Origin: an uncultured cyanobacterium
Lineage (GTDB): Bacteria > Cyanobacteriota > Cyanobacteriia > Cyanobacteriales > CAWCAG01
NCBI GenBank assembly: GCA_963793425.1
Contig: CAWCAG010000009.1
Location: forward strand, 1,007,037-1,071,036
Length of the DNA stretch: 64,000 bases
Direction: 5' to 3'
The notes under the pieces are model-generated. The model was not told the origin of the DNA and searched no databases. It saw only the letters and a program-made list of their open reading frames with translations. Shown piece by piece: positions 5,300-64,000 of the stretch; the first letter of the stretch is position 1; every line of letters begins with the position of its first letter. Position numbers and translations under genes: made by a program.

Positions 5300-5556
5300 T
5301 AGCAGTTATAAAATAGAAGTTATTGCTTATTGTTGAGTTGTTTTCTGGCAATAACTAATATTTTACTAAATTTTCAATTTTCTCGTCGGTATCGCTTGTT
5401 TTTTGCCAATAAGAGTTAGATATCCCAGGCGAAAATCGTGGTTTTTGCTAATAGCTAGTGGAAGCATAGAAATAGACCAAATGTACCTCATGAGTCTAAG
5501 AATTGCGATAAAACTACTTATTATTTGTTACTTATTACTTATTACTTAAACTAAAG

Positions 5557-6498: not shown

Positions 6499-6618
6499 GG
6501 GAGGCTGGGGAGATAGGGAGCTGGGGAGATAGGGAGCTGGGGAGCTAGGGTGATGGGGAGCTAGGGTGATGGGGAGAAAACTATTAGCCATTAGCCACTA
6601 GCCATTAGCAATTAGTAA
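6499..6618. repeat. Two adjacent heptamer-type repeat tracts (GGGGAGMTAGGGAGCT-like units, then GCCATTA/GCCACTA units)
   Basis: Direct reading: ggggagatagggagctggggagatagggagctggggagctagggtgatggggagctagggtgatggggag, followed by ctattagccattagccactagccattagcaattag. Confidence 0.8.
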
Positions 6619-48199: not shown

Positions 48200-49096
48200 G
48201 TGTCAAACTCCAACCAAAACACTATCCTGGGTAAATTTGCAAGCGTTGTTGCTCTTTTAGGTAGCGCTCTTTATTTTACAGGCTGGATTTATCGTTGGTC
48301 TTACTTTGGCTTTTTTCAACTGGAAGTTACTACCCTCAACTTTCCCTTTGAGTCGTTTCTCTTTGTTCCTCTCCAGGTATTTTTAGGTAGCTTTGCACCA
48401 AATAACCTGGGTAAAGCGATTCTGCAAACTCTCTTTACTATTGCAGTTACTTTAATTATTATTCAAATCACCGTCAGTCTTTTGCAACTAATCAGCTTAA
48501 CTATCACTGCCACCCTCAATTGGTTAACTCAAAAGTTAAGAAAAAGGCTGCAAACTTGGCGAAATCAAAAACCTTTTACCTACAAAACTCGTTCTCTAAT
48601 TAACTCAGTTTTAATCCAACTCAATCGCCACCGCTTCACTCCCCTAAAAATCCGCCACACTCTCTTTTATGAACTAATCATCGTCCTCCATATCATCATC
48701 GCCCTCTTTTTCCTCGCCAGACACCAAGGCATCGTAGATGCTAGACAAGATGCGGGGATAAACTCTAGCCTCTCTGCTGTTACCCTAGTTATCCCGGAAA
48801 ACAAACTAGGTTTTGGCCAAAAACAAAGTAGTTTAGATCAGCCCACAGGGTTGCAAATAATCGGCGATCGCCAACGTTATGAGGACATAGTTAAAAGCCC
48901 AACCAATGACCCCAACAATCAAAGAGTGTGGCGCATTGTTATTGATCAAGGAGGTTACTTTTACATCTTCCGCACCTTACCCCCCAATGCTTCCCCCGAA
49001 GCACGGCCAGTGATTTTAGCTGTGCAAGGTAGTCTCAATGGTGATCAACTATGGATTTTTAGCCCTGAACCAATTCCTAATCAGGTTAAAGATTAA
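48200..49096 (+). CDS. Hypothetical membrane protein (298 aa)
   Basis: Long ORF with a GTG start and three to four hydrophobic helices. Confidence 0.5.
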   Translation: MSNSNQNTILGKFASVVALLGSALYFTGWIYRWSYFGFFQLEVTTLNFPFESFLFVPLQVFLGSFAPNNLGKAILQTLFTIAVTLIIIQITVSLLQLISLTITATLNWLTQKLRKRLQTWRNQKPFTYKTRSLINSVLIQLNRHRFTPLKIRHTLFYELIIVLHIIIALFFLARHQGIVDARQDAGINSSLSAVTLVIPENKLGFGQKQSSLDQPTGLQIIGDRQRYEDIVKSPTNDPNNQRVWRIVIDQGGYFYIFRTLPPNASPEARPVILAVQGSLNGDQLWIFSPEPIPNQVKD

Positions 49097-49878
49097 ACTA
49101 ATTCTCCCCGCAAAACCGTCACAGCTTGCCCTGCTAAGAAAACGCGATTCCCGCCGTCGTAATTTACTTTAACTGTGCCGCCTCGCCTTGATGCTTGGTA
49201 AGCTAAAAACTCATCTTTTCCTAGGCGATCGCGCCAAAAAGGAGCCAAACAACAATGGGCGGCTCCCGTTACAGGATCTTCATTTATACCTAATTCTGGG
49301 GCAAAGAAGCGGGAAACAAAGTCATATTCTGAACCAGCACTAGTGACAATTACTTTTCCGAAAGAGAGCTTTTTTAATAAGCCAAAATTTGGTTGCATTT
49401 GTTTGACTAATGCTGCTGATTCTACTTCTACTAAATAACCTAAAGAATTTTGCCAAACTGATTGACAAGGGACTCCTAAAGCTTGAGATAATTCTGGTGG
49501 TGTAGGAATACTTTGAGAAGGATTTGCAGGAAAGTTTAATTCAATCCAATCACCCTGCCGGCGCGCAGTTAAGTCCCCACTCTTAGTATAAAAATAAGCT
49601 ACTTCTTCTAGGGGTAAATGTCCTTCACTCCAAAGGACATGGGCGCTAGCCAAAGTAGCATGACCACACAAAGGAACTTCCACCGTTGGGGTAAACCAAC
49701 GTAGATGATAACCTTTATTTTGGGGTAGTAAAAATGCTGTTTCTGATAAGTTCATTTCCGCTGCGACTTGTTGCATCCATTCCTCATCCCTGGCCCTGTC
49801 TAAAACACATACAGCCGCAGGATTGCCAGCAAAGACTTGGCTAGTAAACGCATCTACTTGAATGATAGTTTGTTTCAA
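49093..49878 (-). CDS. PhzF-family isomerase-like protein
   Basis: IIQVDAFTSQVFAGNPAAV...SETAFL...RWFTP..EV.LCGHATLA are typical PhzF blocks. A TTG start is assumed. Confidence 0.8.
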   Translation of the reverse strand: MKQTIIQVDAFTSQVFAGNPAAVCVLDRARDEEWMQQVAAEMNLSETAFLLPQNKGYHLRWFTPTVEVPLCGHATLASAHVLWSEGHLPLEEVAYFYTKSGDLTARRQGDWIELNFPANPSQSIPTPPELSQALGVPCQSVWQNSLGYLVEVESAALVKQMQPNFGLLKKLSFGKVIVTSAGSEYDFVSRFFAPELGINEDPVTGAAHCCLAPFWRDRLGKDEFLAYQASRRGGTVKVNYDGGNRVFLAGQAVTVLRGELV

Positions 49879-50103
49879 AATGTTTCCCCTGATTTAAGCA
49901 AAGTTTAGGCTATCAATATAGCAATTCTCTTACTTGTGAGATACAGCCTGGTTTTCGCTAACGGCTAATGGCTAATGGCTAGTAGCTAGGCAAGGAACAG
50001 AGTTAATAAATCCTTGGGCTTATAAGTATTGTTAAACCAACCAGAAACGACCTTATGCTTAATTGTATAAAGAAAATAGACTTGACAAAATTGAGGTAAT
50101 GGG

Positions 50104-52482
50104 TTGAAAAAAATTTTTGCTCGTATCATTCTTTTCTTCTATACAGTAGGCTTAGGGATTTTATTTACTTTCAATGCCTTACGTAAAAAAGCCCGCGCTA
50201 CCCATAAATATGGCGTAGGAGGAGCAGGAATTGCCAAAATTATTGATCATCCTCAATTCCCGGAACACGAATTTTTTCAGGCAGGCAGGGTTTTTCCTCT
50301 ACGCCTGCGTCATGCCACAGTAACTTATCCTGATGAGGCAGCTAAGGATATTCGTAGCGTTTCGCTTAAGTTTTCTGATCATGAGAAGGAAAGTCCTTTA
50401 GATATTGTCATGAATACTGCCCCCCAAACTTTCCGACATATTGTCGGTTTTTGGCGATTTGCTCTTAGTTCTATTCTGAAAAAGAAGCCTGATGAACCGG
50501 TTAGTTCTTTAGGATTAAAGGAATACTGTAATTATGACTCTCATCAGCGGCTAATTTTTACAACCGCTTTACGTCGCGCCCCTGAGAGCTTTACCCAAGT
50601 TTATTATCATTCTCAACTTGTCAACTATTTTAAGGCTGAAGATGGCAAAATCCGTTATGTAAAATATCGCTTAATACCAGAAAATCGGGGGAAAGAGTCT
50701 GGTTTGCAAAGTGAAGAAGATGCCCAAACTCCTTGGTTACAAAAACGTTATCCTCAAGAAAAGAAGCGCCAAGATTATTTAAGTTTAGAATATATTGAAA
50801 GGGCCTCTAAAGAACCGATTATCTACCACCTACAACTACGTCTCCATGAAGATACAGGGGATGTAAAAGAGATTTGTCGCCAGGATCGGCCATGGAGTGA
50901 GGAGACTTCCCCTTGGTTAGACTTAGCCACCGTTACTATTCAGCGTCCGCTTACTTTCCAAGAAACAGAAAAACTCACCTTTAATATTGGGACTCAACCT
51001 CCATCTTTGGGTATAGTAGATGGCAAGTCTATCTATGACCCTAACTCCATTAATTATGCGCGTACTCGCGTTTATGGATTTTCTCAAGCAGTTCGCTACA
51101 TTATCTACAAAATGAGTAAGTTCAAAAATCCTAAAGAAGAGTTTGTTTATCATGGGCAACCGGGTAAAGATTTACCCCGTTTTGACTTTAATAAAAAGTT
51201 GCCTAAACGAGTAGATGTCACCAAGAAATATAAGGCACAGGTAGGTTTAAATCTTCTCCCTGCTGTTAAAATTCTTAAATTTATTCCTATATTAGGTATT
51301 GTTGGTAGCGAGAAAATGATGGGGGCAAAAGCACCTAAATGGATGCCCACAAATTTAACTCGCTGTCGTTTAGATCGAGATAGTGATGAATTTTTTGTTG
51401 AACGCCGCCTTAATGGTTTCAATCCCGGCAAAATTAATCTTGAAAAGGATGCCAGTAAGGAGTGGCAATATTACGTTAGATACGATTGTAGTAAGTATGA
51501 AGTTGAGCCGGCAGGAATTTTACCCCAGGTAACAGAGGCACGCTTTCAGTTAATAGATGAAGAATTAAAAGTTCACTCTATTGAATATACTTTGCAAAAG
51601 GAAACAAAAACCGTTTTCCCTAGCGAAAAAGATTGGAGTTTTGCTAAACGCCTTTTCCGCAGTGCCGAGTTTGTTTTCCAAGAAATTCAATCCCATTTAG
51701 GGCGTACCCATATGAATATGGATCAGTACGCTATGGCTTTTTATCGCAATATTGTTGATAATCCGATCAAGTCTCTTTTAGAACCCCATTTTGAAGGTTT
51801 AATTAGTATTGATAAAAATGGTGCAACTTCAATTCTCGGTTACGAAGGATTCATCCCTCAAGCTTCTGTCCTCACCAGCGATGACGTACATCGCCTTTTA
51901 ATTGAAGAGGTGAGTCAGCTAAGTTACAAATGGACACCAGAGGTTATTAAACTCCCAGATTATATCAAGAATAACTATTTCGACCCTGCCGCTAGTGCCA
52001 TGTGGGGAATTATTGAAGAATATGTGGGAGAGTTTTTCGCTCAAAACGAAAATGCTATCAAACATTATTGGTCAGAAGTTGTCGGAATGTCTGAGGATTT
52101 GGTTAAACATTCTATCCTCGAATCCACTTCAAAAACCTTAGCAGTTAATAATATAAATGAGCTTAAACAATTATGCGTTTATGTTATTTACCACAACACT
52201 TTTGTCCATTCCTGGGTTAATAATAAACAATACGATGATGGTGGCGATGTAGAGTATACACCTTTCGGTTTATGGGATGAGAATCATCCTAGTTATGATG
52301 TTAAAACTGAAGCGAAAAGACAGGCGAAACAAACGATTTTGATGTGGACTCTTTCTAATGTCCGTTACAACCCCATAATGGATGTAGGACCAGGAAATTT
52401 AAAAGAGTTACTTTGGCAGCACCGTCAAGAAATTGAACCAGGTATTGCCCTTGCTGATTTGATGATGAGTATTCATATTTAA
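50104..52482 (+). CDS. Catalase-related hemoprotein (allene-oxide-synthase-like) fused to a mini-lipoxygenase
   Basis: The N-terminal half has catalase-type distal RATHKYGVGGAG, FPLRLRHATV, and proximal-Tyr block RTRVYGFSQAVR. The C-terminal half has lipoxygenase iron ligands SHLGRTH (H-x4-H), VHSWVN (H-x3-N) and a C-terminal Ile (..MMSIHI*). TTG start; the N-terminus is hydrophobic. Confidence 0.8.
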   Translation: MKKIFARIILFFYTVGLGILFTFNALRKKARATHKYGVGGAGIAKIIDHPQFPEHEFFQAGRVFPLRLRHATVTYPDEAAKDIRSVSLKFSDHEKESPLDIVMNTAPQTFRHIVGFWRFALSSILKKKPDEPVSSLGLKEYCNYDSHQRLIFTTALRRAPESFTQVYYHSQLVNYFKAEDGKIRYVKYRLIPENRGKESGLQSEEDAQTPWLQKRYPQEKKRQDYLSLEYIERASKEPIIYHLQLRLHEDTGDVKEICRQDRPWSEETSPWLDLATVTIQRPLTFQETEKLTFNIGTQPPSLGIVDGKSIYDPNSINYARTRVYGFSQAVRYIIYKMSKFKNPKEEFVYHGQPGKDLPRFDFNKKLPKRVDVTKKYKAQVGLNLLPAVKILKFIPILGIVGSEKMMGAKAPKWMPTNLTRCRLDRDSDEFFVERRLNGFNPGKINLEKDASKEWQYYVRYDCSKYEVEPAGILPQVTEARFQLIDEELKVHSIEYTLQKETKTVFPSEKDWSFAKRLFRSAEFVFQEIQSHLGRTHMNMDQYAMAFYRNIVDNPIKSLLEPHFEGLISIDKNGATSILGYEGFIPQASVLTSDDVHRLLIEEVSQLSYKWTPEVIKLPDYIKNNYFDPAASAMWGIIEEYVGEFFAQNENAIKHYWSEVVGMSEDLVKHSILESTSKTLAVNNINELKQLCVYVIYHNTFVHSWVNNKQYDDGGDVEYTPFGLWDENHPSYDVKTEAKRQAKQTILMWTLSNVRYNPIMDVGPGNLKELLWQHRQEIEPGIALADLMMSIHI

Positions 52483-52593
52483 ACTACACTTCACAGGAAA
52501 AATTCGTGATTAAGCTTAGACGAACAGAAACGCACTGTTAAAAAAAATAAGCAGGAGGGAATCGCCTTTCCCGTAATTTCTCGCAAAACGGAA

Positions 52594-52627
52594 TAAAAAA
52601 ATCTCCCTAGTTTAGAACTGGGAGATT
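52594..52627 (-). terminator. Intrinsic terminator downstream of the RNA-binding protein gene
   Basis: The minus strand reads ATCTCCCAG-loop-CTAGGGAGAT followed by TTTTTTTATT. Confidence 0.6.
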
Positions 52628-52724
52628 TATAAGGGTTGAGGTTAGAGAAGTCAGTTGAACTTCTCTAAAAGTAGTTAGCTACTTGGTTCCTCGAAGAGTT
52701 GATTTTAAAATTCAACAAGCATTT

Positions 52725-53009
52725 CTAGAAACGGTTGTTTCGACGACCGCCGCCACCTCTATTTTCTTCACGAGGTTTAGCTTTATTAACTTTTAGGACA
52801 CGATCCATCCACTCTGCGCCATCTAGAGCGCTAATGGCTTCATCTTCGTTGGCTTCGGATTCCATCTCGACGAAAGCAAACCCGCGCATACGACCTGTTT
52901 CGCGATCGCTAGGAATATGAACCCGCTTAACGGTTCCATACTCGGCAAAGACTTCATTTAAGTCTTCTTGCTTAACTTCGTAAGATAAATTGCCTACATA
53001 AATCGACAT
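52725..53009 (-). CDS. RRM-type RNA-binding protein with glycine/arginine tail
   Basis: RNP2 IYVGNL and RNP1 RGFAFVEM. C-terminal tail RGGGGRRNNRF. Confidence 0.95.
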   Translation of the reverse strand: MSIYVGNLSYEVKQEDLNEVFAEYGTVKRVHIPSDRETGRMRGFAFVEMESEANEDEAISALDGAEWMDRVLKVNKAKPREENRGGGGRRNNRF

Positions 53010-53376
53010 ATTTTGTTTGTCTTCTCAGTGAGTGTTGTGTTTAGAGAGACAGAATTATTCAGAAAGCAATAGCTCAATACTTTACGGAAAAAACCTTTAG
53101 ATACTGGATGCAAACTTAATCGTCAATAATTATGATTCTCAGTCTAAATAGTAACACTTTTATCGATGAAAACACACCATTCTATTTTTTCTAATGATTT
53201 GTTTAGATTTTGAGTGCTGAAAAAAAAATATAGTTCTCTGTTTTCGCTATCCAAAACTACAGCGACGTAAAGGTTTCGCTGTGGCGTGATCGGAGCAAAT
53301 AGCGATCGCGAGATGAACCATAACGATCCCCCGTGAACCGAAACTATAATCGTAAGAAAGCTTTGGAGAGAAATTG

Positions 53377-53601
53377 ATGACATTGCAGGAGTTGCAAAAG
53401 CAAGCATTACAGTTGTCAATTGGCAATCGCTGGCGTTTAGTTCAATCCTTGCTTGGCTCAATTAAACAAGAAACCTTACTATTTGGTTCTCCAAACCTAA
53501 ATATGAATTTGGTTACTGGGCTTGTTCCCTGGACTCAAGGCTTAATCGGCACTATTTGGCTAAGCCCAGAAGAACTAACAAAATCCTATATAGCAAAGTA
53601 G
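53377..53601 (+). CDS. Antitoxin-like addiction-module component, copy A (C-terminally divergent/truncated)
   Basis: MTLQELQKQALQLSIGNRWRLVQSLLGSIKQETL... is near-identical to the first ~35 aa of ORF 55883. It lacks the C-terminal domain of copy B and has no toxin partner. Confidence 0.55.
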   Translation: MTLQELQKQALQLSIGNRWRLVQSLLGSIKQETLLFGSPNLNMNLVTGLVPWTQGLIGTIWLSPEELTKSYIAK

Positions 53602-53613
53602 CCCTAGACAAAG

Positions 53614-54267
53614 ATGAAGCCAATTTTGAACATTGAAGGCTTGTGTAGTGAGGCTGCCAAGCTTGCTGAAATAGAATCTTTATACAACGAGCCTACAATT
53701 TACGGTGTAACAGATGGAAAAGCTGTTGGAACTTATTTTGAACATAAGTTTAAAGCTTATTTATCTGAAAACTACAGTTATCAACCAGGTAATTCAGCTT
53801 CAGGCATTGATATTCCTAGTCTTGAAGTTGATATAAAAGTAACAAGTATTAAACAGCCGCAATCATCTTGTCCTTTCAAGTCAGCAACTCAAAAAGTATT
53901 TGGACTAGGACATCATCTTTTAGTTTTTGTTTATGAGAAATATGATGATCATGCCAATAAAACTGGAAGGTTAAATATGCAGCACACAATTTTCATAGAT
54001 AAAAGTAGAACAGCAGATTTTCAGACAACTAAAGGCATCATAGACATTCTCAATCGAGATGGTAATAAAGATGACATAATTGCTTTTATAATGGAGAGAA
54101 ATTTGCCTGTTGATGACATTGGTGCAAATCAGTTAGGTGAAAGAATATTAGAATCGCCTCCAAATCTGGGCTACTTAACAATTTCCAATGCTCTTCAATG
54201 GAGATTGCAATACAGTCGAGTTATTCAGCAAGCTGGTAGTATTTCAGGCATAATTAGAGTTCGATAA
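53614..54267 (+). CDS. Putative type II restriction endonuclease (PD-(D/E)XK)
   Basis: Candidate catalytic core SGIDIPSLEVDIKVTS (D...D/E-x-K). It ends 3 nt before the methyltransferase gene on the same strand. Confidence 0.55.
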   Translation: MKPILNIEGLCSEAAKLAEIESLYNEPTIYGVTDGKAVGTYFEHKFKAYLSENYSYQPGNSASGIDIPSLEVDIKVTSIKQPQSSCPFKSATQKVFGLGHHLLVFVYEKYDDHANKTGRLNMQHTIFIDKSRTADFQTTKGIIDILNRDGNKDDIIAFIMERNLPVDDIGANQLGERILESPPNLGYLTISNALQWRLQYSRVIQQAGSISGIIRVR

Positions 54268-54270
54268 ATA

Positions 54271-55788
54271 ATGGTGAAAAAAATATCAGATAAGTGGCAG
54301 TTTGGCGACTTTCAAACTCCTAATAATCTTGCTAACAAAGTAGTAAAAATTCTCAGGTTAAATCATAAAATAGCACCACAAGTTATTATTGAGCCATGCT
54401 GCGGTCAAGGAGTATTTGTTAAAGTAGCTCTCAAAGAGTTTAAAAAAGCAAAAATAATTGGCTTAGATATTAATGAAAAGTATGTTGAAGAAGCAATAAA
54501 TTCTATATCTAAATACCCGAATTCAGAAAATGCTATTGTAGAAAAGTCTGACTTTTTTAACACTGATTGGCAGGATCTAATTTCTCAACAATTGGGTTAT
54601 ATTTTAATAATTGGTAATCCTCCTTGGGTTACAAGCAGTGAACTAAGTGTTCTTAATAGTCAAAATCTTCCGGCTAAATCGAACTTTCATAATAGGCGAG
54701 GTATTGAAGCTATAACAGGTTCAGGAAACTTTGATATTTCTGAGTGGATGCTTCTACAACAGGTCGAATGGTTATCAAAAAGAGAAGGTACTATAGCTAC
54801 TTTATGCAAGTTCTCTGTGGCTAGAAAGGTCATGCTTAAAGTGAGAAAAAAGTTAGGAAGTAGATTTTCTACTTGTGTTTATTTAATAGATGCAAAAGCC
54901 TATTTCGGAGTATCAGTAGAAGCTTGCTTATTTGTTTTATCAACTAATAAAAATGAGGTTGATTGCGAAGTTTATGGAAATTTAGAAGCGGAGAAGCCAT
55001 CTTATACAATTGGACAAAGAGATGGGCTAATGCTCAAGGATACAGTTAAATATGAGAAGTGGAGACATTTATTAGGTCAAAATTTGAGATATGTATGGCG
55101 TTCTGGAGTTAAACACGACTGTTCTAAAATAATGGAACTAGAACGAGTTAATGATACTTTATTCCAAAATGGATTAGGAGAAAAATATATTTTAGAAGAA
55201 GACTACTTATATCCTCTTTTGAAAAGCTCAGATATTGGCAATGGTAGAACTGATTATTACCGGAAACTTGTTTTAATTACCCAGCAGGCAGTCGGAGAAG
55301 ATACAAGCCTTATTCAACATAAAGCACCTCAAACCTGGCAATATTTACTTGAACATAAAAAGTTCTTTGAAAATAGAAAAAGTTCAATTTATAAAAATAA
55401 GCCATCATATTCTATTTTTGGCGTTGGCCCTTATTCTTTCAAAAGCTGGAAAGTGGCAATTTCAGGATTTTATAAAAGATTAAATTTTTGTCTTATTCAT
55501 CCTTTAGATGGAAAACCAGTTATATTTGATGATACTGTTAATTTTTTATCTTTTGATACTGAAGAAGAAGCAAAGTTTATATTTAACCTGGTTACATCGC
55601 CTCCTTCGTTAGAGTTTCTCGATTATATGATTTTTTGGGATGAAAAAAGACCAATAACTATAGATATTCTAAAGCGATTATCCCTTAAAGCTGTTGCTAA
55701 AGAATTGGGTGTTTTGGAAGAATATCTACATTGGGCTAAGGCTATTCAGATTAATGCTACAGGTCAGTTAGAGTTGGGGTTAGCATGA
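54271..55788 (+). CDS. N6-adenine DNA methyltransferase, gamma-type motif order
   Basis: AdoMet motif I IIEPCCGQGVFV precedes catalytic motif IV IIGNPPWVTS. A large C-terminal region probably acts as the target-recognition domain. Confidence 0.8.
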   Translation: MVKKISDKWQFGDFQTPNNLANKVVKILRLNHKIAPQVIIEPCCGQGVFVKVALKEFKKAKIIGLDINEKYVEEAINSISKYPNSENAIVEKSDFFNTDWQDLISQQLGYILIIGNPPWVTSSELSVLNSQNLPAKSNFHNRRGIEAITGSGNFDISEWMLLQQVEWLSKREGTIATLCKFSVARKVMLKVRKKLGSRFSTCVYLIDAKAYFGVSVEACLFVLSTNKNEVDCEVYGNLEAEKPSYTIGQRDGLMLKDTVKYEKWRHLLGQNLRYVWRSGVKHDCSKIMELERVNDTLFQNGLGEKYILEEDYLYPLLKSSDIGNGRTDYYRKLVLITQQAVGEDTSLIQHKAPQTWQYLLEHKKFFENRKSSIYKNKPSYSIFGVGPYSFKSWKVAISGFYKRLNFCLIHPLDGKPVIFDDTVNFLSFDTEEEAKFIFNLVTSPPSLEFLDYMIFWDEKRPITIDILKRLSLKAVAKELGVLEEYLHWAKAIQINATGQLELGLA

Positions 55789-55882
55789 TTAGTGAATAGG
55801 AGACTAAATGCAAGTGTTCGTAACTATCGTGCCTTGAGAAGAAACCGTTTACAATAATCCCAAAAGCTGTGGAGAGGAACTG

Positions 55883-56383
55883 ATGACATTACAGGAATTA
55901 CAAAATCAGGTATTACAATTGTCAGTTGGAGATCGCTGGCATTTAGTTCAATCCTTGCTTGGCTCAATTAAACAAGAAACCCTATCATTGAATTCCTCAG
56001 ACTCAAGTGGCAATGAAATTTCAGGACTTAATCCTTGGAGGCAAAGCTTAATAGGCTTAATTCAGCCAAGCCCAGAAAACCAGACCACTCCCTATGACCT
56101 AACTTTAGAACTAAGTGATCAGGTTTTTGCTGCTATTATGCAACAAGCCCAAGCAGTTGGTGTTTCTCCGGAAAGATTAGCAACAACTTTACTTGAGAAG
56201 GAATTTAGTCAAGCTTTTAAGTTATTTAAAAGTGAGGCTGAAAAAGGTGCAGCACGAGCAAGATTTGAGGCTCATTTTGGTACATTAGAATCAAGTGATT
56301 TAATGAGTTTAGATAATGAGAGTATCGATGCTGATTTAGCTAGAGAATATGCCAGTAAGCATGAAGAAGAGTATGCTTCTTGA
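55883..56383 (+). CDS. Antitoxin-like addiction-module component, copy B (full length, partner of PIN toxin)
   Basis: N-terminus MTLQELQNQVLQLSVGDRWHLVQSLLGSIKQETL, with an acidic C-terminus. Its 3' end overlaps the PIN gene start. Confidence 0.65.
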   Translation: MTLQELQNQVLQLSVGDRWHLVQSLLGSIKQETLSLNSSDSSGNEISGLNPWRQSLIGLIQPSPENQTTPYDLTLELSDQVFAAIMQQAQAVGVSPERLATTLLEKEFSQAFKLFKSEAEKGAARARFEAHFGTLESSDLMSLDNESIDADLAREYASKHEEEYAS

Positions 56384-56774
56384 TACATCTGGACTTCTCT
56401 GTCTGCAATTTTTAACTGAACCATTTCATACCCAAGCTTGTACCGAGTATCAGAAGGCAACTAATAGATTAACTCATAATTACATCATTGCTGAGTATGT
56501 AGCACTTGCTAATGCGAGACGCTTTTCGCGATCTTCTGTTCTTAATTTTATTGTTGATTTGTTAAGTAATCCAGACATAGAAACTGTGTGGATTGATGAA
56601 TCTTTAAATAGAGAAGCAGTTGAGCTATTGATTGCACGACCAGACAAATCTTATTCTCTGTGTGATGCTGTTAGCTTCGTTTTGATGCGTCAACGTGGAA
56701 TTACTAAGGCACTGACAACTGACCGTCATTTTGAGCAAGAAGGTTTTGTTAGACTCTTGCAGTTATCTATTTGA
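56361..56774 (+). CDS. vapC: PIN-domain ribonuclease toxin (VapC-like)
   Basis: Acidic quartet context: LLDTSGL, IIAEYVAL, SLCDAVSF, TTDRHFEQ. The start is ATG 56361 or 56373, overlapping the antitoxin stop. Confidence 0.75.
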   Translation: MKKSMLLDTSGLLCLQFLTEPFHTQACTEYQKATNRLTHNYIIAEYVALANARRFSRSSVLNFIVDLLSNPDIETVWIDESLNREAVELLIARPDKSYSLCDAVSFVLMRQRGITKALTTDRHFEQEGFVRLLQLSI

Positions 56775-56854
56775 GCAATTCTCTTTCCTATCGATTTATA
56801 CAAACTCCATAAAGCTATACTCATAGATGAAATAGCTGATCATAAACGCTTCCC

Positions 56855-58093
56855 ATGGAAAATGAGGCTCGAAGTATTCCTTCTTGGCTAGAAGAAAGTC
56901 CAGGCTCAAAAGTTAAGCCTCCCGTTCAAACAAAAATTCAAGAACTACCATTTGATAAATTAACCTGGGAGAATTTTGAAAGACTATGCTTACGTTTAGT
57001 CAGGAAAGAAGCAAACGTAGAGCATTGTCAACTGTATGGTCAACGAGGCGATAATCAAGAGGGCATTGATATCTATGCGAGATTGCTGGATAGAGACAAA
57101 TATACTGTCTATCAGTGTAAACGAGAGAAGAACTTTGGCCCTGCAAAAATCAAATCAGCAGTCGATAAATTCCTAAAGGGTAAATGGGCTAAACGAACAA
57201 ACTGTTTCGTATTATGCACTCAAGAAAGCTTAAGACACAAAAACCGTGCTGATGAATTTAAAAGCCAAAGTGAAAAGCTCAGAAATGAAGGAATTTCTTT
57301 CATTGCCTGGGATGAGGATTATCTATCTAACACGCTCAAAAATTATCCTGATATTGTAGAAGACTTCTTTGGTAAGCCTTGGGTAAATGCTTTCTGTAGT
57401 AAGACACAAGTAGATAATGTCAGCAACGAATCAGAAAAAGATATTTGTGTTGAGGAATATCAATTATGGCTTGCGAAGAAAACATCTTCCTTTGTGATTC
57501 CGACGTTAGGTAAAACATTTTCTATAGCTACTGATTGGTTGCCGAGAAAAGCACTTTGCATTCAAGCAGATAAAGAAAGTTTTGATGTAGAACTAATTAC
57601 AGAACTATATAAACGTTGCCTTATAATAGGCAATTCTGCTAGTGGTAAAAGTACGCTTGTCCGAAGATTGGCAAACTGTTTGACTCAGAAAAGAAAGAAA
57701 GTTTTGCTAGTACGTCTGCCAGATGTACTTCGTTTATATCAGCAAGGAAAGACCTTTACTGATGCTATTTTAGATTGCTCTATTGATGGTTCAAATATTG
57801 ACCATTCTTTATTACGATTAGCGCTTAATAATCCTGACTACTTGTTAGCAGATGGTTTAGATGAATGTAATACAGATAGAGCAGACATTGCTAGAAAATT
57901 GATGTCTTGGGCGGATGGTCATTCAACAACTAGAGTTATAGTAGCCAGTCGAAAAAATTGTATACCGGAATCGTTATCGAATTGGCCACAATTGGAATTA
58001 CAGCAACTCAATAAAGAGGAGATTCAGAAATTCTTTTCAAAGATTTTGAGTGCTGCTTCAGAAGAAAAATCGAAGCTTGAGGAAAAGTTATAG
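56855..58093 (+). CDS. Mrr-type restriction-nuclease domain + NACHT/STAND P-loop NTPase, N-terminal part of a split NLR-like gene
   Basis: Nuclease block WENFERLCLRLV...GDNQEGIDIYA...YTVYQCK. Walker A IIGNSASGKSTLV, Walker B DYLLADGLDECN, and RVIVASRK. It ends at TAG 58091-93. Confidence 0.75.
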   Translation: MENEARSIPSWLEESPGSKVKPPVQTKIQELPFDKLTWENFERLCLRLVRKEANVEHCQLYGQRGDNQEGIDIYARLLDRDKYTVYQCKREKNFGPAKIKSAVDKFLKGKWAKRTNCFVLCTQESLRHKNRADEFKSQSEKLRNEGISFIAWDEDYLSNTLKNYPDIVEDFFGKPWVNAFCSKTQVDNVSNESEKDICVEEYQLWLAKKTSSFVIPTLGKTFSIATDWLPRKALCIQADKESFDVELITELYKRCLIIGNSASGKSTLVRRLANCLTQKRKKVLLVRLPDVLRLYQQGKTFTDAILDCSIDGSNIDHSLLRLALNNPDYLLADGLDECNTDRADIARKLMSWADGHSTTRVIVASRKNCIPESLSNWPQLELQQLNKEEIQKFFSKILSAASEEKSKLEEKL

Positions 58094-58267
58094 CCTTTCT
58101 CGGACTGATGAGGTACATTTCCACTAGCCACTAGCCAAAGCGCAAAAACCAGGCTGTACCTCACTAGCCTAAGAATCGCTATAGCACTAATTGAAACAAT
58201 TTTCCAAAACGAAAAAACATTATCTCTAGCACAGGAAAGTCCTCTCCTAGCTGGTTTTATTATTAGA

Positions 58268-60115
58268 TTGGTTTTATCAGACGTAGATATCACTCAGAAG
58301 AATCGAACTGAACTTTATGAGGCGATAGTTAATCTCGCTTATGGTCATTCACCGGAGTTTAGGAAGTCTATTGAGCTTAGCAAGCGCAGTGCAAAGAGGT
58401 TTTTTTGTGTAGCTGGTTGGAAGCTAATGCAGAAACCTTCAATAACTGAAGATGAACTTGTAGAAGAATTAGTTCAAGAGCTTCAAACAATGGGTTACAC
58501 TCTACAAGAAGCTGAAAATGAGACTGAGAAAGGCATTCAATTTTGGGAAGATAAACGTATTTTTTGTCGCTCCACTTTTGGACATAAAGATAGGGTCAGT
58601 TTTGTGCATTTATCTTTGTGCGAATATGCAGCAGGTAAATATGTTTCTCAACTAAACGACACGGCTTTGCAAAATTGGCTTAAGGAAGCTAAGAGAGATA
58701 CTAGATGGAAAGAAACAATATGTTTTGCATCCAGCTTAGGTATGGGAGAAAAGGTTGTCAGATGCTTACTTGATTTAAACGATTCAAGAGATTTAGATTT
58801 CCCTGAAATAATACTAGCTTTAGCAGTCACTATAGAGAACAAAAACATTCCAGCAGAGTTGTTAGAGACTTTAATATCTCGAATCCAACCTCAACTAGAG
58901 TCATCTGAGCCTGACAATATCTTTGAAATTACAGTAGGACTATTATCTATATTGCCAAAAGCCTCTAACTTGATTGGTGATTTAGCTAAAACTTTACTTG
59001 AAAATGACAATTTTCATACTCGTATAGCTGCTACAAGGCTTATTTTAGCTTGTAAAGAGGAAAACATTTGTCTAGATAAATTAACTCAGTTAATCAAAGA
59101 GATTTTATCAAATCCTATACCTAATATGAGATTATCATTTATGATTGGAGACAAAGGAAGCAAAAAATATGAGTGGGATATTAGAAATGAGATTATATTT
59201 TCTGGTTGTCAATTACTTCTGAAAAAGCGGCAAAATATTGAGACTCATAACCAGATATTGTTATTAATTTCTGAATGTTCTTTCATCGGTGCAGGTATAG
59301 TAGACTCAGTGAAGGAATTGTTGTCAAACAGCGCATCAACAAAGTTGCAGACAGAAGACGCAAAAGAATGGATTTCTTTTCTGCAAAAGCTCACACCTTC
59401 TGATAGTTTTCCTAAAAAACTAAAACTAGAATCTCCCAAAGACATCTTGAGGAAACTTAAAATCTCAGAGAGAGCTAGATTGGCTGATAAGACATTTCTA
59501 GAATCAATTTTTCGCATAGTTGGAGTACCCCAAGAACACGAAAAGCTTAAATATTCTTCTGTTGGAATAGAATTAGTTGCTTTAGGAACTCTTTTTAAGG
59601 GAATGGGGTTGTGGCACATACCAATAACTGCATGGAATATTTTGAGTAATTGTGATGACCCTGAAGCTGTTGATACTGTTCTTAAGGGTATGATTATTGC
59701 TTTAGACATTGATCAAGAGAGGCTTATGGCTGAAGCATCAAAGGTTCTAAATGATATAGAACGTTTCTTTTCGTTTGACTTAAATTCGGTTAAATCTGTA
59801 CTACAAAAGGACGAATATTCAGAAAGATTTTTTGAAACACTGGATTACTTATCCAGAGAGATTTATCAAGACAAAAAAGCCTCACTTGCTATGTACCGCC
59901 ATCTACCAAAAGTGCCTGTTATATACAAGTGGCATCTTGTTACTAATATTAGACTCTCTTCAAAAGTTTTAGTACGCGCCTTTGAGCATCCGTCAGCAGC
60001 AATTTCCCAAAACGCAGCTCTATTAGTAAAGTATGGAGCGGGAGGTGAAGAGGCAGTGAGATTGGCAAGAAAACTTGTAGGAGAGGAGGAATGGGAATCT
60101 TTTGAAAAAATGTAA
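58268..60115 (+). CDS. C-terminal part of the split NLR-like gene: NACHT helical/winged-helix region + helical-repeat sensor
   Basis: Same frame as 56855..58093. The frame is open from 58112 (..LRIAIALIETIFQNEKTLSLAQESPLLAGFIIRL..). FVHLSLCEYAAGKY is a typical NACHT winged-helix motif. It is followed by ~450 aa of leucine-rich helical repeats. Confidence 0.65.
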   Translation: MVLSDVDITQKNRTELYEAIVNLAYGHSPEFRKSIELSKRSAKRFFCVAGWKLMQKPSITEDELVEELVQELQTMGYTLQEAENETEKGIQFWEDKRIFCRSTFGHKDRVSFVHLSLCEYAAGKYVSQLNDTALQNWLKEAKRDTRWKETICFASSLGMGEKVVRCLLDLNDSRDLDFPEIILALAVTIENKNIPAELLETLISRIQPQLESSEPDNIFEITVGLLSILPKASNLIGDLAKTLLENDNFHTRIAATRLILACKEENICLDKLTQLIKEILSNPIPNMRLSFMIGDKGSKKYEWDIRNEIIFSGCQLLLKKRQNIETHNQILLLISECSFIGAGIVDSVKELLSNSASTKLQTEDAKEWISFLQKLTPSDSFPKKLKLESPKDILRKLKISERARLADKTFLESIFRIVGVPQEHEKLKYSSVGIELVALGTLFKGMGLWHIPITAWNILSNCDDPEAVDTVLKGMIIALDIDQERLMAEASKVLNDIERFFSFDLNSVKSVLQKDEYSERFFETLDYLSREIYQDKKASLAMYRHLPKVPVIYKWHLVTNIRLSSKVLVRAFEHPSAAISQNAALLVKYGAGGEEAVRLARKLVGEEEWESFEKM

Positions 60116-60197
60116 AAAAGAATAATTCCTTTATAAAAAATGTAGAGGCATAAAAAACACCTCTACACTCAACTTCCAAATAATTAAACTACTGAAA

Positions 60198-60483
60198 TTA
60201 GGTCAAAGCCATCGCGGGTTCTTCCCAACGTTCCACTGCCTTACCAATCACAGCTAACTCTTTAACCAAACGCTCAAAACGCTCTGGAGTTAGAGATTGT
60301 GGCCCATCAGACATCGCCTTAGCAGGGTTGGGATGCACCTCAATCATTAATGAATCTGTCCCTGCTGCGATACCTACGGTGGGCTTTGCCTACGCAGCTT
60401 TAGCCATCGGAGGAACATACTCCCATTTCCCTGTACCGTGGCTAGGATCGATCATAATTGGTAGGTGAGAAGCACGATCGCAA
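60198..60483 (-). pseudogene. Diverged duplicate of the 3' end of the DAHP synthase gene
   Basis: Collinear with 61205-61468. It encodes ...[10 protein letters not shown] with its own stop (60198-60200). It carries a ~25-nt replacement where the genuine gene has GCGATCGC, and it ends at CGATCGC (60475-81). A copy of the terminator hairpin lies beside it at 60141-60167. Confidence 0.8.
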
Positions 60484-60556
60484 AGCATCTCAACTCAGAA
60501 AAATCGCATTCTTGGCAGATAAGAAACCAAAATAAAAGAATCGCACCTTAAGCGAG

Positions 60557-60658
60557 GATGAAATTACCGGACTTGGTCTTTGGACGCAAAGCTTAATTGG
60601 TGTACTTAAGCCAAACTCAGAAAATTAAACTGCCCCCTATGATGTAACTTTAGAACTA
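60557..60658 (+). pseudogene. Fragment of the antitoxin-like gene, copy C
   Basis: Reads ..DEITGLGLWTQSLIGVLKPNSEN*TAPYDVTLELI, matching the middle of copy B (NEISGLNPWRQSLIGLIQPSPENQTTPYDLTLELS) but with an internal stop and no 5' part. Confidence 0.6.
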
Positions 60659-60723
60659 ATAAGATTTAAGTAATCTTAAAACATATAGAATACAGTCAAC
60701 TCTCCTATGCGGAGTTTTTATTT

Positions 60724-60933
60724 ATGACCTTAACTGAAATGCTTCCTGTAATCCGGCAGCTTTCTATAGTAGAAAAGCTTAAATTGATTCGGATTCTTGC
60801 AGAAGACCTAGAAGCGGCAGAGGATATTTCTCCTCTAGAACCGTTTAAGACCTATGACCTGCCAACTCCTTACAATAGCTTTGGATCTGGTGCTGTATTG
60901 ATGCAGGCAGTAGAGTCAGTAAACCAACCTTAA
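60724..60933 (+). CDS. Small hypothetical protein (69 aa), possibly antitoxin-like
   Basis: MTLTEMLPVIRQLSIVEKLKLIRILAEDLEAAED... ATG start, followed 5 nt later by the protease-like ORF. Confidence 0.4.
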   Translation: MTLTEMLPVIRQLSIVEKLKLIRILAEDLEAAEDISPLEPFKTYDLPTPYNSFGSGAVLMQAVESVNQP

Positions 60934-60938
60934 TTGTA

Positions 60939-61106
60939 ATGCGTTTTCGCTACTCTACTACCGATTCTTCCCAAAACGAGTTCGATAGCCTGCCACGAGT
61001 TTCAATCATTCTTCGTCGAGAAGGACACACTGTAGAAGCTCTCGGACTTGTTGATAGTGGTGCAACCATTAATGTTTTGCCCTATGAAATTGGTCTTCAA
61101 TTCTAA
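60939..61106 (+). pseudogene. Truncated retropepsin-like aspartyl protease ORF (55 codons)
   Basis: My translation: MRFRYSTTDSSQNEFDSLPRVSIILRREGHTVEALGLVDSGATINVLPYEIGLQF*. The DSGA active-site motif is present. The ORF is cut off where the mini copy of the aroF 3' end begins (61103). Confidence 0.5.
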
Positions 61107-61145
61107 GTTAAAGCCATCAGATGAGAAGCGCGATCGCAATATAAG

Positions 61146-61183
61146 ACAAAAAATGTAGAGGCATCAAAAAACACCTCTACACT
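61146..61183 (-). terminator. Intrinsic terminator of the DAHP synthase gene (duplicated at 60133-60168)
   Basis: Stem TGTAGAGG (61154-61) / CCTCTACA (61174-81), with a T6 run following on the minus strand. Confidence 0.7.
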
Positions 61184-61204
61184 TAAATTTTAAACTATCC
61201 AAGC

Positions 61205-62263
61205 CTAAGTTAAAGCCATCGCTGGCTCTTCCCAACGTTCTACTGCCTTACCAATCACAGCTAACTCCTTCACCAAACGGTCAAAACGTTCTGGAGTGAG
61301 AGATTGTGGCCCATCAGACATGGCTTTGGCGGGGTTGGGGTGAACTTCGAGCATTAATGAATCTGTTCCGGCTGCGATCGCCGCTTTAGCCATCGGGGGA
61401 ACATATTCCCATTTCCCAGTACCATGACTGGGATCAATCATGATGGGGAGGTGAGTTAGCGATCGCAACACAGGAATTGCGGCTAAATCTAAGGTATTGC
61501 GGGCATATTTACGGTCGAAGGTACGAATACCCCGTTCACAAAGAATTACATTAGGATTACCTGCTGCTAGGATATATTCTGCTGCCATTAATAAATCATC
61601 AATAGTTGCTGCCATACCCCTTTTGAGGAGGACTGGCTTATCTTGCGCCCCTACCTTCTTTAGCAAGGCGAAGTTTTGCATATTCCGCGCCCCAATTTGC
61701 ACCACATCGGCAACAGCGGAGATTTTTTCTACATCCGCAGTATCCATCACTTCTGTGATGATGCCTAAGCCTGTTGCTTCCCTCGCTGCTGCCAAGAAAT
61801 GTAAAGCACTTTCCCCATGACCTTGGAAAGCATAGGGAGAAGTGCGAGGCTTGTAAGCGCCACCCCGCAAGAATTTTGCCCCCGCAGCTTTAACTCGCTT
61901 AGCTGTTTCAACAATCATCTCCTCATTCTCCACAGAACAAGGGCCAGCCACTAAAACAATGGGATGATTTTCACTGAAGCTAACCTTACCATTCGGGGTA
62001 GAAACCACCACTTCACTAGGTTGCCCGTGGCGAAACTCCCGGCTAGCACGTTTGTAGGGGCGTTCTACTCGTAAAACCCTTTCAATCCAAGGGCTAACTT
62101 CCTGTAGTTGTAAAGGGTCTAAAGAAGCAGTATCTCCTACTAAACCAATCACAACTTTATGTTGACCAACAATTTTTTCTGGGGTTAAGCCCCAATCTGT
62201 AAATTCGGTGCTAACACGACTAATTTCCTCTTCTGGGGAACCAACTTTCATGACAACGATCAT
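61205..62263 (-). CDS. aroF: 3-deoxy-7-phosphoheptulonate (DAHP) synthase, type I-beta with N-terminal regulatory domain
   Basis: GAYKPRTSPYAFQG and the IDPSHG block. The N-terminal ~70-aa ferredoxin-like extension begins MIVVMKVGS. Confidence 0.9.
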   Translation of the reverse strand: MIVVMKVGSPEEEISRVSTEFTDWGLTPEKIVGQHKVVIGLVGDTASLDPLQLQEVSPWIERVLRVERPYKRASREFRHGQPSEVVVSTPNGKVSFSENHPIVLVAGPCSVENEEMIVETAKRVKAAGAKFLRGGAYKPRTSPYAFQGHGESALHFLAAAREATGLGIITEVMDTADVEKISAVADVVQIGARNMQNFALLKKVGAQDKPVLLKRGMAATIDDLLMAAEYILAAGNPNVILCERGIRTFDRKYARNTLDLAAIPVLRSLTHLPIMIDPSHGTGKWEYVPPMAKAAIAAGTDSLMLEVHPNPAKAMSDGPQSLTPERFDRLVKELAVIGKAVERWEEPAMALT

Positions 62264-62504
62264 CTATACAATCTCCGTATGCCCAGCAGTTTTAACCCTG
62301 GGAACAATAAATTAAGAATCGACAATTGAGAAAAATATTTTTAGTAACCTGCTTATGAGGTTCGCTTAACTATTTAGATATTTAATCAAACCGAGCATAA
62401 AGTTGCGATAAAAAACACAAAACTTTGATTGTCTTATTGATTTGGGTAACTTCCCTAAAATATTTTTAACCTAATTTTGGTTAATTTTCTTCCCTTGACT
62501 TGGC

Positions 62505-62954
62505 TTATTTTCTTCCGTCCCGCCAAGCGCTGGTAGTCCTCCTGAAGTTGGGGCCAACTTCTGCTAAACCTAGCCAACTACCTTGTCTGTTTTCATCCCA
62601 GGAACTAGAGAATAAACCATAGCTTAAGCCCAAAACACCTAGGCCAAAAAAGCCCATACTTACTAGCAAGACAGCAGAGGTGGGCAGTTTAAATAAATTG
62701 TGGGAGACAATCCAGTAGCTGACAAAGAAGCTAAGAATACCAAAGCTGGTGGGAATGCCAGAAAATAGTGCCATACGACGCACCATACGCTTACTTACAG
62801 CATCTGGTATGGCAGCAAGACTTGCCTCAGTTTTGCGAGGGGTTTTCTCCACAACTTTACTAGGAGAAGAAGAGGGAGGGGCTTTTTTTGGGGTTTTCTT
62901 CTTTTTGTTTTTGGGTTCAAAAGGCAGATGTTCCCCTTGAGATTCAGAAGACAT
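62505..62954 (-). CDS. PAM68-like photosystem II assembly factor (DUF3464 family)
   Basis: Lysine/proline-rich N-terminus, then IPDAVSKRMVRRMALFSGIPT and two transmembrane helices. Confidence 0.8.
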   Translation of the reverse strand: MSSESQGEHLPFEPKNKKKKTPKKAPPSSSPSKVVEKTPRKTEASLAAIPDAVSKRMVRRMALFSGIPTSFGILSFFVSYWIVSHNLFKLPTSAVLLVSMGFFGLGVLGLSYGLFSSSWDENRQGSWLGLAEVGPNFRRTTSAWRDGRK

Positions 62955-63061
62955 ATACAGCAGTTTTAATCAAAATGATTTATTCTAGACTTTGGTTTTG
63001 GCTAATCGCTAATTGCTTTACAAGGAGCGAGATTGCTTGTGGGTTAGGCTGTATAGTTTTG

Positions 63062-63331
63062 TTAGCGACGAATGCCTAAGCGCTTGATTAATTGGAGATA
63101 GCGTTCACGACTTTCGCTTTGAATGAAAGATAAGAGGCGACGGCGACGACCAATCATTTTTAGTAGCCCTCGGCGAGAAGCATAATCTTTTTTGTTCTTT
63201 TTAAGATGCTCAGTTAGTTGGTTAATGCGTTCAGTTAGCATTGCTACTTGTAGATCAGCAGAACCTGTATCGGTTTCATGCTTCTGATATTCAGACATTA
63301 ATTCTTGTTTGCGCTGTTGAGTGAGAGTCAT
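63062..63331 (-). CDS. rpsO: 30S ribosomal protein S15
   Basis: 89 aa: ...DTGSADLQVAMLTERINQLTEHLKKNKKDYASRRGLLKMIGRRRRLL.. Confidence 0.97.
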   Translation of the reverse strand: MTLTQQRKQELMSEYQKHETDTGSADLQVAMLTERINQLTEHLKKNKKDYASRRGLLKMIGRRRRLLSFIQSESRERYLQLIKRLGIRR

Positions 63332-63455
63332 AGTTGTTAGATTAAATTAATAAAACGCAGCAATTTACCATATTATCACTCCTCATAAGCTGTTTGGGCT
63401 TAAGAGGAGTGATTTTGGTGAGGGAGACTAGTTGAGATCAAGTCGCTCTGGGAAT

Positions 63456-64000
63456 TTATTGATTTTCCAAAGTTAAAGAATCTAGCAAAATTAAAGGTAA
63501 AGCTTCTTTGCTAATGCTTAGAGCATAACTGGAAGTTAAATAATCTTGGTACTCAGGCAATTGACCAATGTAAGTGCTGAAGAAAGCTAAGCTCAGGGCC
63601 TTAACATATTCTTGGGCTATTTTGGGATCAGGACCGACGGCTTCAGGGGGAAGGGGAATACTACCTTCGTCTTCGGCGATCGCAGAAAAATGTGTACCTC
63701 CTTTTAAAAGGGCTAGATATTTTGGGGGAGAGGTTAACCAAGTGAAGGGCATGATTTGCTCAACTAAAACTGGGGTAACGGTGTCGTCACTGCTACCAAA
63801 AATCATAATTGGTTGCTCAATTTTGCCGATTTCAGTTTCTCCAAAAATTGTACTATCTAGAGGATTGATCGCTATTACTGCGGCGATGCGGTCATCTTTT
63901 AACTCATAATTAGCGTCCTCTAAGTAAATAGCTTGACACTGAAGCAACAAAGAGATGTTAAGAAAATCGACATTACTATCAGATTGACAATCTGCTCGTA
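63456..64000 (-). CDS. Alpha/beta-hydrolase-like protein, C-terminal part (gene continues beyond window end)
   Basis: The frame stays open upstream of the tracked TTG (63950) to position 64000 (..RADCQSDSNVDFLNISLLLQCQ..). The C-terminal block GGTHFSAI is typical of dienelactone/PAF-acetylhydrolase-like hydrolases. Confidence 0.55.
   Translation of the reverse strand, partial: RADCQSDSNVDFLNISLLLQCQAIYLEDANYELKDDRIAAVIAINPLDSTIFGETEIGKIEQPIMIFGSSDDTVTPVLVEQIMPFTWLTSPPKYLALLKGGTHFSAIAEDEGSIPLPPEAVGPDPKIAQEYVKALSLAFFSTYIGQLPEYQDYLTSSYALSISKEALPLILLDSLTLENQ

Follow-up and report, generated by a model that had tools for sequence, protein, structure and literature searches.

Architectures in which a restriction endonuclease (REase) or Mrr_cat domain is joined to a NACHT domain, sometimes with HEAT repeats, were already listed for clades 2, 3 and 6 of bacterial NACHT proteins in the portion of Table S1 considered here (Kibby et al. 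Table S1), where clade 6 includes bNACHT32 (REase+NACHT+NCH1) and bNACHT25 (REase+nSTAND4+NCH1). These two proteins protect E. coli against DNA and RNA phages, the nuclease is needed for the protection (D48A abolishes defence), and DNA is degraded on activation (PMC12169576). For the STAND NTPases as a whole, 589 clades (198 of them defence-associated) and 684 sensor clusters, mostly helical repeats, were described (Lee et al. 2026, PMC13581612), and the motif D[GAS]hDE in Walker B separates NACHT from the other STAND NTPases (Kibby et al.). A NACHT gene of this kind was identified in the window, which is the whole 64,000-nt stretch analysed here from contig CAWCAG010000009.1 of an uncultured cyanobacterium. 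Its protein is a further member of this known class, and the gene has been inactivated in this genome by a transposable element of the miniature inverted-repeat type (MITE). Taken together, the locus probably represents a single-polypeptide NLR-like (bacterial NACHT) protein of nuclease-NACHT-solenoid build, inactivated here by the MITE, whose intact allele would by analogy be antiphage.

The gene (Table 1) occupies one frame from end to end, and all motifs quoted in the initial annotation were recovered at their positions in that single frame. The annotation had taken it for a gene split into two same-frame open reading frames (ORFs) set apart by one break. The common frame was confirmed, but the gene is not merely split. 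Three in-frame stops were found instead of one break, TAG at 58091-93 and TGA TGA at 58109-14, and all of them lie inside a 93-bp insertion which carries the MITE and is absent from the intact allele of a near-identical genome. A frameshift or a simple nonsense mutation was ruled out, with no alternative frame in the three-frame translation and an insertion at the break. The search with the fused frame returned 282 homologues. About 35 of these are full length, at 1040-1090 aa and 36-56% identity, and they come mostly from cyanobacteria. Among the homologues is P0001 (MGB3693088.1), a 1055-aa 'NACHT domain-containing protein' from a Spirulinaceae cyanobacterium metagenome-assembled genome (MAG), which equals the product of the window minus 31 codons, with one Ser/Thr change. 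Because the fused frame finds these homologues and the near-identical P0001, the pair of ORFs is not a product of chance.

The contig which carries P0001 (L001, GCA_049650125.1) could be aligned with window positions 48223-64000 at 99.95% identity over 15.7 kb, and the sole large difference between them was the 93-bp gap. The empty site in L001 reads AAAAGT-TA-GCACT, and the filled site in the window reads AAAAGT-TA-[91 bp]-TA-GCACT, so that the 93 bp consist of the 91-bp element plus the duplicated TA and amount to exactly 31 codons, which keeps the frame. The intact allele is carried by two MAGs. A second filled MAG (GCA_049683835.1) has an exact match to the element, with the ORFs called as 412 aa and 562 aa, and in a third filled MAG the contig begins inside the element (P0121). 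When the other full-length homologues were aligned with P0001, an insertion at the position of the MITE was seen in none of the 26. Therefore the insertion is derived, recent and polymorphic, and the near-identity to the intact allele likewise makes it a recent event and not an evolved arrangement. The gene here is a recent, population-polymorphic pseudogene, inactivated by the MITE.

The terminal inverted repeats of the element are imperfect and 27 nt long, the left one being TAGCCTTTCTCGGACTGATGAGGTACA and the right one, as reverse complement, TAGCGATTCTTAGGCTAGTGAGGTACA; they enclose a 37-nt loop in which ACTAGCC occurs twice at 58123-58136. The element folds as a long hairpin (RNA -28.8 kcal/mol, z=-3.6), which is strong because of the inverted ends. 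A hammerhead ribozyme or another structured RNA was also considered, as the insert contains CTGATGAGG besides the strong hairpin, yet it had no match in Rfam at E<=10, neither to an intron nor to a ribozyme, and this candidate was rejected. Terminal inverted repeats, a target-site duplication, 91 bp of non-coding sequence, many dispersed copies and recent movement were all found, and the inserted element is a MITE. It entered between residues 412 and 413 (codon 413), within helix 405-418, the first helix after the nucleotide-binding domain (NBD) in the AlphaFold2 (AF2) model. What remains in this genome is a 412-aa fragment with nuclease and NBD and an unlinked 3' ORF. The gene is thus predicted to be null, with the 412-aa fragment made at most, and for annotation purposes 56855-60115 is best treated as one MITE-disrupted pseudogene, not as two genes.

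Table 1. Coordinates of the disrupted NACHT gene, its domains, the inserted element and the genes directly upstream (window positions; residue numbers are those of the intact protein).
Feature	Coordinates	Strand	Description or basis
Whole disrupted gene (pseudogene)	56855..60115	+	1086 codons in one frame: 1055-codon intact allele plus 31-codon insertion
N-terminal Mrr-like PD-(D/E)XK nuclease module, aa 34-180	56954..57394	+	Pfam Mrr_cat, invariant residues, core of the model
NACHT nucleotide-binding domain, aa 254-400	57614..58054	+	Pfam NACHT, invariant columns, Foldseek
Walker A GNSASGKS	57629-57652	+	
Walker B YLLADGLDEC	57839-57868	+	Contains the NACHT signature D-G-L-D-E
TA target-site duplication, left copy	58089..58090		Empty site compared with filled site
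91-bp MITE	58091..58181		Left inverted repeat 58091-58117; loop 58118-58154; right inverted repeat 58155-58181
TA target-site duplication, right copy	58182..58183		Empty site compared with filled site
Rest of the NACHT module, aa 413-566	58184..58645	+	Helical domain 1 and winged-helix domain, including FVHLSLCEYAAGKY
C-terminal sensor candidate, aa 571-1055 (~485 aa)	58658..60112	+	27 helices, HEAT/ARM-like alpha-solenoid
Type II restriction endonuclease (53614-54267) and N6-adenine methyltransferase (54271-55788)	53614..55788	+	PADLOC, NCBIfam
Two small overlapping ORFs, 166 aa and 141 aa	55883..56774	+	Toxin-antitoxin-like arrangement

An Mrr-type nuclease module, a P-loop with a NACHT Walker B, a winged-helix-like part and a C-terminal sensor fitting no family had been proposed from the sequence, and all of them were borne out. 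For the nuclease, Pfam Mrr_cat (PF04471) was matched over aa 34-123 with 23.1 bits against a cut-off of 21, and the same family reached 32.7 bits in the homologue P0052 and 28.1 bits in P0033. The putative catalytic residues are D72 (57068-57070), Q87 (57113-57115) and K89 (57119-57121). D72 and Q87-C88-K89 are invariant in the alignment of 27 full-length homologues and make up the D...QxK motif of an Mrr-type PD-(D/E)XK site, and a lack of catalytic residues, which had been named as fatal to the nuclease assignment, was not observed. Mrr itself reportedly uses QxK. In the AF2 model the nuclease core is predicted as alpha-beta-beta-beta-alpha-beta, with D72 and Q87-C88-K89 on strands 70-77 and 83-89.

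At its N-terminus, a 1653-aa NACHT protein of Cylindrospermum stagnale shares 62% identity with the first 184 aa here, yet the two NACHT domains can scarcely be aligned with each other. In addition, NACHT proteins of ~1650 aa named as Bacillus, ANME-1 archaea and Deltaproteobacteria were matched over only ~17% of the query at 55-62% identity, and these matches are presumably to the same N-terminal nuclease module. Because of the 62% identity to the N-terminus of an otherwise unrelated NACHT protein and the similar distant matches, the comparison implies that the effector is a shuffled cassette which was recently exchanged horizontally between NACHT scaffolds. The shared effector module extends over 56855-57424 (aa 1-190) and includes an N-terminal extension, SIPSWLE..PPV.T..QELPF.

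NACHT (PF05729) was the top-scoring Pfam family of the protein, with 37.1 bits against a cut-off of 26.7. Both GNSASGKST and DGLDE are present. In the same 27 homologues, no change was seen at G259, G264 and K265 of Walker A or at G334, D336 and C338 of Walker B, D333 is kept in at least 90% of the sequences, and D333-G334-L335-D336-E337 fits the D[GAS]hDE signature. The AF2 model of P0001 (pLDDT 83.8, pTM 0.69) comprises the nuclease core, a P-loop domain, a helical domain with a winged helix, and a long helical region. The order of NBD, helical domain and winged helix is found in this predicted structure, and the winged-helix region is modelled as helices with a beta-hairpin at 539-552. Foldseek against the PDB placed NLRC4 first (4kxf, E=1.8e-10), followed by NOD2, NLRP3 and NAIP5, with alignments of 530-640 columns to NLRC4, NOD2 and NLRP3, and Avs4 was found at E=1.3e-6. 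When the PDB was searched by sequence, both the family profile and the first 200 aa of the protein yielded nothing beyond P-loop or spurious matches.

The C-terminal domain was modelled with 27 helices (pLDDT 83.3), and Foldseek against the PDB returned for it generic solenoids only (CAND1, PP2A-A, karyopherin-beta2, beta-catenin; best E=0.049). The 666 residues after the stops had no match in Pfam, PADLOC or NCBIfam. HEAT/ARM repeats are likewise without a match to any Pfam repeat family in this protein, and longer relatives, for example P0020, have HEAT_2 in an additional C-terminal extension. Among 1.84 billion representative proteins, the domain was found in 138 clusters at E<=1e-3 and in 23 at E<=1e-30, and in full-length matches it lies at position ~570-1060 behind the same NACHT, in proteins of ~1040-1090 or ~1300-1350 aa. 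With so few relatives and so constant a position, the candidate sensor is a narrow family tied to this NACHT. The domain had been described as leucine-rich helical repeats; helical repeats are indeed predicted, but not leucine-rich ones, and in the model the domain is a generic HEAT/ARM-type alpha-solenoid, a candidate sensor with no specific counterpart among the solved structures.

The protein resembles bNACHT25 and bNACHT32 in having an N-terminal PD-(D/E)XK nuclease, a NACHT domain with D[GAS]hDE in Walker B and an all-helical C-terminus in the same order, and by analogy it would share their output, nuclease-dependent DNA degradation. A weak BLASTP segment (15.4 bits, E=9.6) pairs D48 of bNACHT25 with D72 of the protein here, and the 'ICK' after D48 in bNACHT25 is similar to the 'QCK' (Q87-C88-K89) of this protein. 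On the other side, bNACHT25 has ~750 aa with an NCH1 of ~170 aa, whereas the protein here has 1055 aa with a solenoid of ~485 aa. Against the first 399 aa of bNACHT25, BLASTP gave E=0.007 with 26% identity over 125 aa of the NBD, and hhalign gave a probability of 34%. The similarity is so marginal that the protein is not a member of clade 6. Proteins of clades 2 and 3 are alike in listed domain order and spacing, for example WP_019488190.1 of Calothrix sp. PCC 7103 (REase 5-156, NACHT 218-694), and cyanobacterial NACHT proteins with HEAT-type sensors are numerous in clade 3, as far as the portion of the table used here goes (Kibby et al. Table S1). In the same stretch of the table, the clade 2 proteins with bNACHT gene names have other architectures and no clade 3 protein bears a bNACHT name. 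The accessions of the homologues were not found in Table S1 of Kibby et al.

Avs proteins, for example Avs4 (PDB 8dgf), share the tripartite arrangement of nuclease, STAND NTPase and helical sensor, and the Foldseek match to Avs4 falls in the NTPase region. Unlike in Avs, the NTPase here is of the NACHT type and closer to NLRC4, NOD2 and NLRP3, and the sensor matches no solved Avs sensor. PADLOC-DB contains STAND, NLR-like and AVAST models. None of these models in PADLOC-DB v2.0.0 was matched at E<=10 by P0001 or at E<=0.01 by the ORFs of the window. The initial annotation had spoken of a bNACHT/Avs-type architecture and of a possibly undescribed clade. Of the former, the nuclease-NACHT-helical tripartite build was retained and the Avs type was given up, with no Avs or AVAST profile match and the closer structural relation to NLRC4, NOD2 and NLRP3; the latter was overstated, as dozens of full-length orthologues were already deposited as 'NACHT domain-containing protein' and the architecture was catalogued.

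The antiphage setting that had been suggested for the locus agrees with its neighbourhood, which is of a defence type, with a type II restriction-modification (RM) system and a toxin-antitoxin-like pair directly upstream. The two RM genes were identified by REase_II (PADLOC, 1.4e-96), MTase_II (PADLOC, 5e-163) and NCBIfam NF052465 (346.6 bits against a cut-off of 290). Of the two small ORFs, the 166-aa one has a weak match to the addiction-module family TIGR02574 (E=0.003, below cut-off), and the 141-aa one has no match in Pfam, PADLOC or NCBIfam; the pair is tentatively regarded as toxin and antitoxin on account of the overlapping gene arrangement. Among the homologues, P0015 is located behind a BanI-type RM system together with HicAB and PemK genes, P0016 among DNA methylases, an HNH gene and a Uma2 gene, P0006 near RelB-PIN and ParE pairs and a relaxase, and P0005 near a toxin-deaminase and a second NACHT protein, while two homologue loci are mostly housekeeping. 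No neighbour is conserved, so the NACHT gene looks like a single-gene system. No relatives were found on the viral contigs of IMG/VR.

A TPR-repeat protein of 714-776 aa (L002 10898-13042; L004 3384-5714) is encoded close to both P0005 and P0006, as the next gene downstream of P0005 and ~2.3 kb upstream of P0006 with several small genes in between; the window lacks a gene of this kind.

By analogy with bNACHT25/32 and Avs, the solenoid of the intact allele would hold the protein autoinhibited until it binds a phage-derived or infection-induced ligand. The NACHT module would then bind nucleotide (NTP) and oligomerise, and the clustered Mrr-like nuclease domains may cut DNA indiscriminately, by which the infection would be aborted. 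In this genome, the MITE entered at the TA of codon 413, duplicated the TA and brought in the three in-frame stops, which leaves the gene inactive. Should the intact allele be antiphage, the bacterial NLR-like receptors would gain a cyanobacterial REase-NACHT family whose sensor is uncharacterised, and cyanophage triggers are almost unexplored. A more far-reaching proposal is that the intact allele founds a largely cyanobacterial REase-NACHT-solenoid family, whose very small sensor family would recognise a cyanophage-specific protein and so provide a new pattern-recognition specificity; this we regard as doubtful, although conceivable. Given such a specificity, the filled/empty polymorphism of the MITE could be a natural on/off switch of immunity, and even a reversible one, since the frame would be restored by precise excision at the TA duplication.

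The antiphage function of the intact allele is something we infer from analogy, and several points weigh against it or against the domain assignments on which it depends. Besides the faint similarity to bNACHT25, the Mrr_cat score of this protein exceeds the cut-off only marginally, the NACHT gene is matched by none of the PADLOC or NCBIfam defence models, of the seven contexts considered three (L005, L127 and, for the most part, L002) are not clear defence islands, the ligand and the oligomeric state are purely conjectural, and cyanobacteria have many NACHT paralogues with roles that are possibly not antiphage (Kibby preprint). It is accordingly worth considering that the intact protein is not antiphage and acts as another NACHT regulator of conflict or cell death, for example in kin discrimination, in plasmid or mobile-element control or in programmed cell death of filaments. 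NACHT proteins are present in 58% of cyanobacteria, often as many paralogues, and are linked to multicellularity (Kibby preprint), some of the homologues adjoin conjugation or relaxase genes and transposases, and the lack of matches to known defence hidden Markov models points the same way. However, a nuclease effector combined with a sensor solenoid, and RM or toxin-antitoxin genes as immediate neighbours at several loci, speak for defence; such a neighbour pattern was used to call STAND clades defence-associated (PMC13581612), and the REase-NACHT proteins tested so far were antiphage (PMC12169576). A role outside phage defence is thus considered unlikely.

It is highly improbable that the filled allele is a functional split system, in which a 412-aa nuclease-NBD protein and a 562-615-aa protein of winged-helix domain and sensor assemble non-covalently. 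In its favour, the two halves show no other damage, at least three assemblies have the filled allele, and gene callers predict a 562- or 615-aa product for the 3' part. Against this, none of the 26 other full-length homologues has an insertion at the site, the break interrupts a helix of helical domain 1, and the intact allele is so nearly identical that the insertion is recent. Neither a promoter or terminator signal created by the MITE nor a promoter-like site in or after the element was found, and for the 3' ORF the nearest possible starts are a TTG and an ATG, 85 bp and 244 bp downstream, respectively. The chance that the break arose in sequencing or assembly, or that it is a removable element (intron-like or recoded), so that the gene is effectively intact, is negligible. 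Such a reading would be favoured by the length of exactly 31 codons, which preserves the frame, and by the stable hairpin fold. Against it, the insert is identical in independent assemblies, shows a TA duplication together with inverted ends, is one of a family of dispersed repeats, contains three stop codons and has no intron or ribozyme match in Rfam.

The natural knock-out and the intact allele in otherwise 99.95%-identical genomes offer a ready comparison for the cost and benefit of such a gene in a wild population. Pseudogenes made by MITEs are well documented in cyanobacteria (PMC3542288, PMC3184786). Like the cyanobacterial MITEs of Anabaena sp. 90, the mcy-gene MITEs and Nezha, the element here is small, lacks coding sequence, ends in terminal inverted repeats, is flanked by a target duplication and folds into a stable hairpin; it is also like them in the filled/empty polymorphism between close relatives and in turning an ORF into a pseudogene by insertion. 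It differs from Nezha (~130-170 bp) in being shorter (91 bp, family 82-106 bp), and it differs from all three in pairing strongly conserved ends of 27-29 nt with a hypervariable loop. No match to a named MITE family was made.

When the inner-arm pattern was scanned over the genome collection, at least 117 loci of the family were found, which is a lower bound, and nearly all of them are in cyanobacteria (Crocosphaera, Symploca, Moorena, Caldora, Nostoc, Prochloron, Trichodesmium, Pleurocapsa). Among the matches listed, the elements are 82-106 bp long, their conserved ends consist of TAGCGTTTCTCGGACTCATGAGGTACA directly after TA on the left and TGTACCTCA...GCTA directly before TA on the right, 113 of 121 start with TA, and 88 of 121 have TA at both ends. 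In the same listed matches, the inverted ends of 27-29 nt are near base-identical across cyanobacterial orders, meanwhile the loop is hypervariable. The loops are often tandem heptamers, such as CTGCCTC, GGGAATA, ACTAGCC and others. One locus (L056) is in a MAG labelled Sulfitobacter and is probably mis-binned. In ~0.9 Mb of fetched loci, neither a transposase nor an autonomous transposon sharing these ends turned up, and the single 2.3-kb arm pair there flanks an FtsH gene. Judging by the TA duplication, the enzyme may be of the IS630/Tc1-mariner type.

Some minor features of the window were also recorded. A direct repeat of 119 bp (88% identity), at 53357-53475 and 55863-55981, brackets the RM cassette. 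In each copy a small ORF begins, its N-terminus being MTLQELQ.Q.LQLS.G.RW.LVQSLLGSIKQETL; one has 74 aa and lies upstream of the REase gene, the other is the 166-aa ORF downstream of the methyltransferase gene, so the RM genes stand between two antitoxin-like paralogues. A short way downstream of the NACHT gene, a degenerate duplicate (60199-60483 against 61206-61468; 80% identity over an alignment of 286 bp) of the DAHP synthase gene's 3' end (gene at 61205-62263, minus strand) was found; ~720 bp with two small ORFs (60724-60933 and 60939-61106) lie between the copies, and the duplication resembles the scar that an insertion into the synthase gene's 3' end would leave. For the MITE family, the only other copies found in the window are two degraded remnants, a left arm at 5482-5510 (minus strand) with 5 mismatches to the consensus and a right half at 49917-49978 (minus strand), before which stand heptamer repeats of the form (A/G)TTAGCC. 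Another series of heptamers, ATTAGCC ATTAGCC ACTAGCC, is present at 6583-6603.

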